Source of the DNA: a virus
Virus genome (UHGV): UHGV-2203451
DNA length: 37,884 nucleotides
Strand: one strand, 5' to 3'
In this document: positions 27,001 through 30,000 of the stretch, piece after piece
How positions within the stretch are numbered: position 1 is the stretch's first letter
Layout of the letters: every line of letters starts with the position of its first letter
Program-made: the position numbers

Positions 27001-30000
27001 TTTGTTGCGCTCCTCCATCAACTCGGCAATCCGTTTCTGAATGCGTTCATCGCGCATCATGACACTGGCTTTAACTGCCGCTGTATTTGGGGAGAATCCT
27101 GCGTTAATCGCTGCCTGAGTCTGGTTTTCAGGCGTTTTGATGTATGACTGGCAATAAGCCTCCTGCATTGCTGTGAGCGGCTTAAATTGCGTTGATTTGC
27201 GTTTATAGGTTTTAGGTTCAGCAGGCATCATAACCACCGTGGTAATAGTTACCGTTGTGGTAATAGTACCATGCAAAATAAAGCCGCCATAGTTGGCGGC
27301 AGTATTCAAAACCCATCAAATTCATCATGCATAATCTACTCGTAACATGTCACACTATTAATTTCGTTTCATGCCAGCCTTTAGTCACCCAGCATTGCGA
27401 GTCACCATTACACGGGCATGAATTAACTGGAACTCTCTCGCCGCACTTACCGCAACGTTTTCTGCTGATCGATTTTATACGCCCGTGCACGCGTGCATCA
27501 TCCTGGCGGATCAGTAACGCTATATACTCACCAAATTCGTAAGGCGCACGCCCGGGGCGACGCGTAGCACAGTTACGCTCCAGCATTTCAATTTCCTGAG
27601 CATCAAGCACAATTTCCAGCTTACGCACACCAGATGCAGCTTGTCTGGCTCTCTGAGCGGCTTTGCGCTCTGCTGCTGATTTAGCCATCAATATTTACCT
27701 TTATCGCGTATACCTTTACCGGTTTATCACCGAAGTGTGGATGTGTGATTGTTTTTATTTCATATCCGTTATACGGGACGTCAATTCTGCGACTGAAGTC
27801 GTCGCGCTTCGGATATCCCTTTGTGATAATCAGGCGGTCATACTCCCGGAACATAATTCGCTTATTCCAGTAGTCATTACACAAGCGATACTCTTCCGTT
27901 TTCTCCCCGCGAATCATGGCATCGAAGTATTCACCTTTGACGGCAAGTTGCAGGTTAGCCATTACCTCACATCCAGTCTCCATACCGCCTGACCAATCCG
28001 GCTGGCATAGGTATCTTTGGATACTGTTCCGTCTTTAGCCATCTCCATAAGAATTTTGCGCAAATCTGCCGAACGCCATTCTTCATCAGGAAATTCCTTC
28101 TCCATTGCCAACCGCAGACTCCAGGTTGCCATCCTGAATGGATATTCCCCGCCGAGAACTTTCTCTTGCAGGGCTGCACGGGAACGCATCACCTGCAAAA
28201 TCTTCTCTTTCACATCCATCATTTCACCTCCTGCGGCGGTTCCGGTAGCGGCATCCAGTACAAGGCGTTCCCTAACCACGATAAAGTGCCGTCGCTCAAC
28301 TCCACGTATTCCCCTTGTACTTGTCCTGCCATATACTCGCCGTGCTTTGAATAAATTAAAATCCAATCATCTTGAGCGGGCATTCGCTCACTACAGCTTA
28401 TCCAACCATCCGGAGTTACCGGATAGTTGCCAGCCAGTCTACGCAAAACAGTCTTAACCGCCTCAATACGGTCATCATCGCAACTTTCCAGCGTATCTAT
28501 GCGATCGAGCATGATGATGGCGTTATCAATATCAGGATTGCCGGTCCACTCATTACCGCGATTGGATTCGGCAGCCTGGTTGCCGCGTACTGGTTGATTC
28601 TCGGCTTTACCCTGTCTGTCGTCGCTGCATGAATGCCCTTCCAGCCAGACCAGTGCTTGTCGCATGAAATACGCAATATGCTTGCCGTGGTAATCGTCTT
28701 CATCGATGTGAAAAGCGATACTGCGGATATATTCAATTGCGTTTTCAATGGCCTCCGGCGTTACCGGAGTTGGTCCATCGAATTCGGGCATGTCAGGACC
28801 TTTTCTGATAGCTTTAGCCAGCTCCAGCGGGTCATCGTAAAGCCAGTCGCCAGTTTGTGGGTGATTTGCTTCTGCAAGCTGCGCAGCCCATTCAAGACCA
28901 TCTTTTTGACCTTGGAGATAATCAAGCGGCAACTCTTCATGATTACTTGCAGGTTCGGCACCATGAAGCATGGCGTCGCTCCGCTCTATACCATCCAGCG
29001 CGATTCGCAGTGCCTGAATTGTGGTAGAGCTATCGTTTGGGGCTATTCCATATCGCTCGAATACAGCTAAATGGTTGCGCATAATCTCAGGCGTAAGCTC
29101 TTTGTAAGCATAAGCAAGAGGCTCTGATGCATTATCCGGCACAACCGACGCAGGCGCGGCAGCATAAACAGGAATAACGTCCGCTTGCTCTTTATTGCTT
29201 TCATCCGTTAAAGCCCAGAATAATTTCCCGGCCGGATGTTTGAAAATATAAGCCACCGGCTCTGCTTCCAGTGATGCCAGAGCAATTCGTGCCAGTTCTT
29301 CCGCTTCTTCTGCTGGCAGTACAACGTTGCTACCAGGTCCGTATGTTTCGCGCCACTGCTTGATTGTCAGCAGTCGCTCTTTGGTAATAGTGGTCATGTG
29401 TTAGTCCTCTGTAGCAGGTGATACGCCGTAGTTGCATTCTTCATAGAATATGTCTCTGCCTATTTCTTCGGCATCCTCTGGCGTGTCTGCTTCAAACTCA
29501 ACAACCTTGCAATCATTAAATCCTTCGATAGTCACGATGTACTTAGCCATATCACTCTCCTTTGATGCGAATGCCAGTAGCGCGGATTGCATCGATGACT
29601 TCAGAAACTTTGTATGCCATTACCGTTTGGTAATCATCGTGAAAATCTGTTCGATGAAGCATGCCGCTACGTTCCGGGAGCAGTATTTCCCGCGCTTCCA
29701 GTTCTGCTATGCGCTTATTTGCTGCTTCCAGCTCAACACGCAGCTTCCCTACCGTTAGCGCAATATCCTCGTTCTCCTGGTCGCGGGATTTGATGTATTG
29801 CAGGTTTCTTTCCCGTTCATCCAGCAGCGCCTGCACTACTTCAGGGTTGAAAGCTGCGATATAACGAGCGTTGTTCTCTGCGTTTTTCTGTTCGTCGAAT
29901 CCTGGCCAGTCGACAATATCTCCGTGATGATTATCACCTGGTGTGTGTACGGCGTACGTGCCGTATTTGCCCGGCGAAATAAATGCGACCCATTCACCCT

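Follow-up and report, generated by a model that had tools for sequence, protein, structure and literature searches.

The control region upstream of the terminase small-subunit gene (terS) was analysed in the virus genome UHGV-2203451, the whole stretch of which, 37,884 nucleotides, is referred to here as the window. By sequence, the phage is an epsilon15/phiV10-type temperate podophage of the genus Uetakevirus. At 93-99% identity, the region matches the Escherichia coli O157 typing phages 9 and 10, vB_EcoP_PAS61, ZX5, TL-2011b and phiV10, which are all epsilon15-like podophages. The minus strand carries both the early-right and the late genes. Along this strand, an early run extends from ~33.4 to 27.35 kb and is closed by a gene for a 112-residue protein (27350..27688, with the ATG at 27688 and the TGA at 27352-27350), followed by a terminator, two operator-like palindromes, terS and terL. 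A different palindrome, of the form GTGAC-N2-GTCAC, lies over the TGA of the 112-residue protein gene (27342..27353) and reads GTGACATGTTAC on the minus strand, with one mismatch. The small terminase subunit, encoded at 26635..27231 (minus strand), matches Pfam Terminase_2 (E = 1e-29) and PHROG 51. The open reading frame (ORF) at 25163..26638 on the same strand is annotated as the large subunit, terL, in TL-2011b and phiV10. An original prediction had placed a small basic protein, a rho-independent terminator, an ATTACC-N5-GGTAAT-type site and terS in this order, and the layout was borne out. Two functional readings came with it, namely a Q-like antitermination module and, as an alternative, direct gating of the late operon by a palindrome-binding regulator.

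Terminator, operators and candidate promoter of terS

The early-right operon ends in a predicted intrinsic terminator at 27274..27300 (minus strand), composed of a stem at 27300-27283 and a T-tract at 27282-27274 (GCCGCCAACTATGGCGGC plus TTTATTTTG). The stem starts 49 nt past the stop codon of the 112-residue protein gene, within the 50 nt originally proposed. It comprises 7 base pairs, six of them G-C, encloses a 4-nt loop and is followed by TTTATTTTG, which gives the G+C-rich hairpin and U-tract typical of an intrinsic terminator. The hairpin folds at -13.8 kcal/mol (z = -3.9), and none of 200 shuffled sequences folds as well. It is kept in epsilon15, PAT1 and Tyrion with loop changes only, while one relative retains the stem via a G-U pair. 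The epsilon15 record itself annotates the corresponding terminator.

Between the terminator and terS, a motif search located two tandem 17-bp operators, each with one mismatch to ATTACC-N5-GGTAAT. Operator A (ATTACCACAACGGTAAC on the minus strand, 27248..27264) overlaps the -10 hexamer and the predicted start of the candidate promoter described below, and is syntenic with a protein_bind feature labelled 'repressor' in epsilon15. Operator B (ATTACCACGGTGGTTAT on the minus strand, 27230..27246) overlaps both the first ATG of terS and its ribosome-binding site, GGTGG. The flanking GGTAAT repeats, initially described as extra elements, are indeed present, but they are merely the half-sites of this second operator. 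The tandem arrangement is conserved in epsilon15 and Tyrion. With at most two mismatches allowed, ATTACC-N5-GGTAAT occurs 14 times in the window against 1.16 expected, a number reached in none of 100 shuffles. The motif is similarly enriched in phiV10, epsilon15 and Klebsiella Kp4865-1, with 15-18 matches where 1-1.7 would be expected.

In the epsilon15 record, seven protein-binding features labelled 'repressor / lysogeny' share the consensus ATTACC-N5-GGTAAT. The feature at 12-27 directly precedes terS; others precede gp3/portal, the tail fibre gene and gp43 or lie to the left of the repressor gene. Motif matches in the window at 34096/34158, 33384/32999, 31053/30991, 27248/27230, 24037 and 4246-6742 are syntenic with the epsilon15 sites. 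The presumed binder is the prophage repressor Rep, encoded on the plus strand at 33455..34039, which matches PDB 5D50 over its full length (E = 4e-42) as well as PHROG 8. The molecule in PDB 5D50 is named 'Repressor', and a note in the epsilon15 record gives its source as Salmonella phage SPC32H. The window has what defines an epsilon15-type Rep operator by sequence, that is, a 17-bp palindrome in multiple copies at promoters together with an encoded Rep homologue. Kp4865-1 retains the same operator core though its Rep is just 45% identical. From the annotation of the epsilon15 record and this comparative evidence, we infer that Rep would bind the ATTACC-N5-GGTAAT sites at terS.

A different identity can be considered for the direct repeats of ACTATTACCAC at this position, namely that of small-terminase recognition sites, either pac or cosB-like. 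The repeats stand immediately 5' of terS, where lambda has cosB, and relatives package by a headful mechanism, Tyrion being circularly permuted. However, the 17-bp palindrome also occurs at the early-left, early-right and middle promoters and before the portal and tailspike units, places that epsilon15 annotates as repressor sites, and the apparent direct repeat is a mere tandem of two inverted-repeat operators. We consider a packaging role for these repeats extremely improbable.

Operator A adjoins a candidate extended -10 element for terS-terL, here termed P_terS (27263..27271, minus strand). The hexamer TACTAT (27268-27263) is preceded by TGG, with the TG at 27271-27270, in agreement with the pattern TGnTAnnAT; transcription would start near 27256. 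All 80 near-identical Uetakevirus loci scanned, the set to which counts of close relatives refer throughout, carry TGnTAYTAT; n can be G, A or T, and hexamer position 3 is the only other variable position. Elsewhere, the element reads TGTTACTAT in epsilon15 and PAT1, TGGTACTAT in Tyrion, TGGTATTAT in Kp4865-1 and TGTTATGAT in Rahnella and Advenella prophages, and Kp4865-1 retains it despite unrelated upstream sequence. A wider form, TGnTA(C/T)(T/G)AT, adjoins the operator in E. coli, Salmonella, Enterobacter, Klebsiella, Rahnella and Advenella sequences. Across these genera, TG, T1, A2, A5 and T6 are fixed, and drift is confined to n and hexamer positions 3-4. We infer a promoter here because the former positions are held while the latter drift, as would be the case for a functional -10 element. 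At the early-left promoter and at the middle promoter (between 31053 and 30991), the proximal operator likewise overlaps the -10 hexamer. Both hexamers end in the 'AT' of ATTACC, and the same register gives TACTAT at terS. Direct gating by a palindrome-binding regulator, the alternative named in the original prediction, thus gains support from the operators annotated in epsilon15, the Rep homologue and the extended -10 element that they overlap.

Several further observations concern the operators and their surroundings. The pairs at 34096/34158 and 31053/30991 are each spaced by exactly 62 bp from centre to centre, with a -35 hexamer between the two sites, a distance that could fit one tetrameric Rep bridging both. 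The pair at terS is 18 bp apart. In RNA, the inverted repeats of the terS operators allow 27261-27257 (ACCAC) to pair with the terS ribosome-binding site GGUGG(U), forming a two-tier hairpin (27234-27261, minus strand). The 5' arm of this hairpin is contained in read-through RNA from upstream and is absent from RNA started near 27256.

The sequence ATGTGGTT occurs exactly four times in the window, always intergenic and on the minus strand (4207-4214, 5656-5663, 23986-23993 and 31012-31019), and each copy lies ~22-45 nt downstream of a Rep operator. Three of the copies precede the tailspike gene, the 5.1-5.6 kb unit and the portal operon, and the fourth is inside the middle promoter. A search of the window returned no copy at terS, and the sequence may be a site for some other factor. 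Furthermore, a perfect LexA box (TACTGTATAAATATACAGT, ~4299-4317, plus strand) lies just upstream of an ATG at ~4324, beside the operator at 4246-4262, and a Bro-N (antirepressor-type) protein is encoded at 5981-6676. The LexA box and the ATG at ~4324 fit a LexA-controlled antirepressor-type unit of the kind found in SPC32H.

On the far side of terL, the portal operon is set apart from terS-terL by a plus-strand tRNA-Arg gene (anticodon TCT, 24375-24451) and the plus-strand ORF 24650-25072. The tRNA was the sole match in an Rfam scan of 24400-28000. It lies downstream of a plus-strand promoter-like sequence, TTGACA-17-TACCTT, which is overlapped by the operator at 24037-24053.

The 112-residue protein and Q-like antitermination

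With 22 Lys and Arg against 13 Asp and Glu residues counted from the translation, the 112-residue protein is basic, as originally described. It matches PHROG 536 ('transcriptional regulator') over residues 1-111 (E = 1.5e-54) and is, on sequence grounds, a member of the epsilon15 gp49 / phiV10 p55 / N15 gp46 family; tblastn with the protein returns epsilon15, phiV10, N15 and phiKO2. The family comprises 152 representatives (50% identity clusters, E <= 1e-3), with 720 matches in enterobacterial prophages. Neither Pfam nor NCBIfam gave a significant match, and a single-sequence search of the PDB with the protein found nothing. A literature search returned nothing on the PHROG 536-type family or on the palindrome GTGAC-N2-GTCAC.

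Structurally, the protein models as a ribbon-helix-helix (RHH) DNA-binding domain followed by a C-terminal Cys knuckle. A first AlphaFold2 model, based on 22 close homologues, was poor (pLDDT 54) and was replaced by a monomer model from a 57-sequence alignment (pLDDT 91.5), which displays the strand-helix-helix arrangement of the RHH (MetJ/Arc/CopG) superfamily. In the alignment, the N-terminal segment is basic; the other features are a strand region (G-x4-E-x2-L), two helices and a C-x2-C...C cluster. Cysteines are found at positions 40, 79, 82, 91, 93 and 99, the C-terminal cluster following the pattern CxxC-x8-CxC-x5-C. Only C79, C82 and C99 are (nearly) invariant among the 57 family members, with the fourth Cys at a variable place. 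Of the C-terminal Cys4 zinc ribbon initially assigned, the Cys4 metal site is plausible, but the zinc-ribbon fold is conjectural. A Foldseek search with the model against the PDB and BFVD gave no significant full-length match.

Two assignments to known families were examined and set aside. A profile search of PDB sequences found the C-terminal half to be like TraR/YbiI at a sub-threshold level (E = 0.02-0.03). Kinship with TraR/DksA is not claimed here, as the lead at E = 0.02 went unconfirmed by structure search, and the second CxxC of the DksA/TraR C4 finger (CxxC-x17-CxxC) is absent from the family alignment. A zinc-finger late activator of the Ogr/Delta type (PF04606) was rejected as well, the protein having no Ogr_Delta domain.

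In the Q-like reading, the 112-residue zinc protein would engage RNA polymerase beside its own gene and so enable read-through of the terminator at 27300-27274 into terS. The layout resembles Q-PR'-tR' in that the last early gene is followed by a terminator less than 50 nt further on and then by the late operon, and the window has no other recognisable late regulator. In addition, a promoter-like GTGACA-18-CATGAT overlaps the palindrome, and in epsilon15-type and Omnitron-type spacers a -10-like hexamer can be seen by eye 17 bp after GTGACA. The protein itself argues otherwise. Its predicted RHH fold bears no likeness to the Q structures, a comparison that the original prediction had put forward as a check, and no match to Phage_antiter_Q, Phage_antitermQ or Antiterm was found in Pfam. 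Moreover, homologues coexist with true late regulators. N15 has a Q of its own, gp40 (Phage_antiter_Q, 1.2e-110), and its gp46 is located midway in the early-right operon; a P2-like Yersinia phage has a homologue after gene A plus a true Ogr (PF04606, 3.9e-21). The Chlobot homologue precedes xis-int and not a late operon.

The interval between the gene and its terminator also speaks against antitermination of this type. A 70-residue protein is encoded between the palindrome and the terminator in 20 of the 80 close relatives, and the 40-nt spacer of the window is a deletion relic of this gene. Comparison with a relative's locus (L015, 2857-3069) shows that the relic persists as the mini-ORF MHDEFDGF plus stop (27306..27332, minus strand). 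The hexamer CATGAT was created by this deletion, and GTGACA-18-CATGAT is not conserved, the interval being occupied by LexA-controlled morons or other spacers in relatives. In epsilon15, the spacer is only 22 nt long. A LexA-box-controlled gene stands between the palindrome and the terS promoter in Kp4865-1 (L257, ~12700-13150) and in Citrobacter werkmanii (L259, 3340-3750). The sequences compared show this interval to be a hot spot for cargo insertion. By eye, the N-terminus encoded by the inserted Kp4865-1 gene is UmuD-like. Finally, the conserved candidate -10 element and the overlapping operators of terS are situated downstream of the terminator. The Q-qut-tR' module, with the 112-residue protein as a small Q, could not be upheld, and we regard such read-through as very improbable.

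A family-associated palindrome at gene ends

The palindrome over the stop codon is perfect in nearly all of the 80 close relatives, and the one-mismatch copy of the window is a rare variant. At this position, it reads GTGACATGTCAC in Uetakeviruses, GTGACTGGTCAC in N15 and GTGACGCGTCAC in the P2-like Yersinia phage, and GTGACAGGTCAC or GTGACGGGTCAC is found in another lineage. The P0208 lineage also has a palindrome at the stop codon of its homologue, and in Chlobot, Xenorhabdus and Rahnella rivi it is located just after a TAA or TAG stop. In a survey of 14 genomes, each from a different bacterial species, the palindrome was present at the stop codon in 9. The association holds among homologues of only 31-40% identity, with differing central dinucleotides. 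From the opposite direction, 32 of 120 viral-contig stretches chosen solely for the 14-bp TGTGACATGTCACA encode a family member.

A second copy in the window, a perfect GTGACATGTCAC beyond the end of terL (25077..25088), is syntenic with copies in epsilon15 (2142), phiV10 (2262) and Kp4865-1 (15252). It is separated by 4 nt from the preceding stop of the plus-strand ORF 24650-25072 and by another 4 nt from a hairpin that follows at 25093-25112. Epsilon15, phiV10, Kp4865-1 and N15 each have three perfect copies, against an expectation of ~0.04 per genome; one of the phiV10 copies runs across the record ends, and the N15 copies have a central dinucleotide of their own. In epsilon15 and phiV10, all three show the same succession of gene stop, palindrome and intrinsic terminator. 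One copy closes the early operon, another the small convergent gene beyond terL and the third the long structural operon. A P2-like prophage contig (L226, 2350-2430) carries GTGACATGGCAC, GTGACATGTCAC and TTGTGACTGACACAA ~33 bp apart. A GC-rich cos-like stretch is ~220-300 bp away, and the three palindromes come just after the terminator of leftward portal-side genes; the RHH-Zn gene of this lineage has no palindrome at its stop codon.

A two-fold symmetric 12-mer is well suited to an RHH dimer, as is known from RHH-operator complexes in general. Because the exact dyad suits such a dimer, GTGAC-N2-GTCAC is most likely the site bound by the 112-residue protein. The palindrome is compatible with a dimer that would insert its two-stranded ribbon into the major groove of a symmetric site.

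The palindrome might instead be a general gene-end element, either an RNA 3'-end or processing signal or a recombination linker, and not the site of this protein. At 59 of 111 evaluable viral-contig sites, an ORF of at least 60 codons stops at the TGA within the palindrome, compared with 8% of random TGA triplets, and just 16 of the evaluable sites are internal to long ORFs. Similarity clustering sorts the ORFs with this stop into 22 groups, at least some of which are spurious frames, and only 13 of 63 are RHH-Zn genes. Similarity between near-identical phages breaks directly after the palindrome. However, the association with the family survives 31-40% protein identity and a change of the central dinucleotide, and the share of palindrome-selected stretches that encode the protein contrasts with close homologues at only 390 stretches in a collection of 2.9 million contigs. 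As RNA, the 12-nt palindrome would form a 4-bp stem at best, and its exact two-fold symmetry suits an RHH dimer. We consider a general element unrelated to the protein unlikely.

The same palindrome could serve a missing late activator. The 112-residue RHH-Zn protein, bound to it, would then stimulate weak late promoters without a -35 element, including P_terS, once Rep is gone. Its gene is the last early gene and encodes the only predicted regulator of the early-right operon, P_terS does lack a -35 element, and in Vibrio phage K308 one palindrome lies immediately upstream of terS. Yet the distance between the palindrome and the terS -10 element, counted from the sequences, ranges from ~70 to ~430 bp among relatives, which argues against a fixed-geometry activator site. 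Other copies are found at the 3' ends of transcription units, not upstream of promoters, and the window has no copy close to its middle promoter or to those of the portal and tailspike units. An activator of this kind appears decidedly unlikely.

Since the palindrome stands at the ends of genes and ahead of terminators, it may have a boundary function, either as a roadblock or as a modulator of termination; DNA bridging or packaging is possible as well. Terminators are only ~2-fold enriched near the 14-bp palindrome over random positions. A more far-reaching proposal is that the RHH-Zn family and its palindromes constitute an undescribed gene-end DNA element system. A small dimeric protein, produced from the last early gene, would bind over its own stop codon and at the ends of one or two other transcription units, each time just upstream of an intrinsic terminator, and would there modulate RNA polymerase by read-through or block. 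We hold this to be rather unlikely. If true, such a system would link the early, packaging and structural operons or insulate them from one another, and would represent a locally acting, DNA-site-dependent control of termination that is mechanistically unrelated to N, Q and RfaH. A boundary element, if that is what the palindrome is, would also explain why mosaic junctions fall exactly there.

Three further interpretations of the palindrome were discarded. A promoter inside it, with GTGACA as the -35 element, was rejected as a general feature, as it is absent at most other copies and the -10 element of the window stems from the deletion junction. A packaging end was suggested by the Tyrion record, which is split at the centre of the palindrome, but this phage is circularly permuted and its record ends are arbitrary. 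A CRP site was rejected because TGTGA-N4-TCACA, the form in which the palindrome could be read, has the wrong spacing for the CRP consensus.

Proposed circuit and comparison with known systems

We regard it as probable that terS-terL forms a separate unit with its own Rep-gated promoter, and that the 112-residue protein is no Q analogue and likely a palindrome binder. Early-right transcription would end at the terminator at 27300-27274, and terS-terL would start from its own extended -10 element (TGGTACTAT) just past the T-tract. The tandem Rep operators would cover the -10 hexamer of P_terS, the start site and the ribosome-binding site, so that in a lysogen Rep would shut the packaging genes directly. 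Inactivation of Rep by an antirepressor would free P_terS, and Q-type read-through of the terminator would not be required. A scan of the window proteins gave no Q, Ogr or sigma-like protein, and the only other regulator-like proteins are the Bro-N protein and a PerC-like transcriptional activator of the early-left operon (36751-37050, plus strand; Pfam PerC, 1.6e-6). The 112-residue protein would bind the palindrome over the stop of its gene and one or two more copies, among them the one beyond terL, and the likeliest role of the palindrome would be that of a gene-end or operon-boundary DNA element.

Several points weigh against this proposal. The 'repressor' sites of the epsilon15 record are annotation, and P_terS and the efficiency of the terminator are predictions from sequence. 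The -35 region of P_terS is poor, so an activator or helper may be needed. These phages lack a recognised late activator, and by position the 112-residue protein is the sole candidate. Among the 14 surveyed genomes, the palindrome is absent near the homologues of three Providencia genomes, Rouxiella and one Escherichia. Moreover, as it ends many unrelated genes, its link to the 112-residue protein is statistical and not direct.

No late-gene regulator is recognised in the Uetakeviruses, a group that includes epsilon15, phiV10, SPN1S/SPC32H and many prophages of E. coli and Salmonella. In the arrangement suggested here, each late unit, terS-terL among them, would be under direct control of the master repressor. 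Such a circuit is simpler than the lambda cascade and would explain the operator-like palindromes scattered through the genome. For a widespread small family that databases describe only as 'transcriptional regulator', the analysis provides a fold, a 12-bp candidate target and a set of sites at which this can be tested. Members are found in podophage, siphophage and myophage backgrounds, namely in Uetakeviruses, the telomere phages N15 and phiKO2, P2-like phages and Vibrio phages.

The arrangement of terminator and operator before terS is already known from the annotation of epsilon15 (NC_004775.2), and the window is another member. The epsilon15 record contains gp49, a rho-independent terminator at 39646-39672 and the 'repressor' protein_bind feature at 12-27 before terS. 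It shares with the window the gene order, the terminator hairpin and the operator consensus, and has GTGACATGTCAC at the gp49 stop codon. In contrast to epsilon15, the window has a 40-nt relic spacer, a palindrome with one mismatch and one mismatch in each operator. The palindrome, the second tandem operator and the promoter are left unannotated in the epsilon15 record. The extended -10 reading, the tandem second operator, the fold of gp49/gp46 and the family palindrome appear to be undescribed in the literature searched.

The Rep/Ant switch of SPC32H (PDB 5D50, 5D4Z) is a second point of reference, as the window likewise has a Rep homologue, a LexA box and a Bro-N protein. Beyond that system, the 62-bp operator pairs and the 18-bp tandem pair at terS are observations from the present window. 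With lambda Q/qut/PR'/tR', the window shares the order of a last early-right gene, a close intrinsic terminator and the late genes. The site beside the regulator's own gene is also common to both and is compatible with cis-preferential action. Unlike lambda, the window combines a predicted RHH fold with a late operon that has an operator-covered candidate -10 element, and there is no conserved promoter between the gene and the terminator.

The DksA/TraR-type proteins (TraR, 6N57; YbiI, 2KGO) share a weak segment, helix-CxxCG-x2-(L/I)P...C, with the 112-residue protein. By its modelled fold, the protein would fall into the same superfamily as the RHH regulators Arc, Mnt, CopG, MetJ, the ParD/MazE-type antitoxins, NikR and the N-terminal domain of PutA. 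Compared with these, it adds a long third helix, the C-terminal Cys knuckle and a terminal helix. Furthermore, its presumed site is the 3' end of its own gene and not an upstream promoter.

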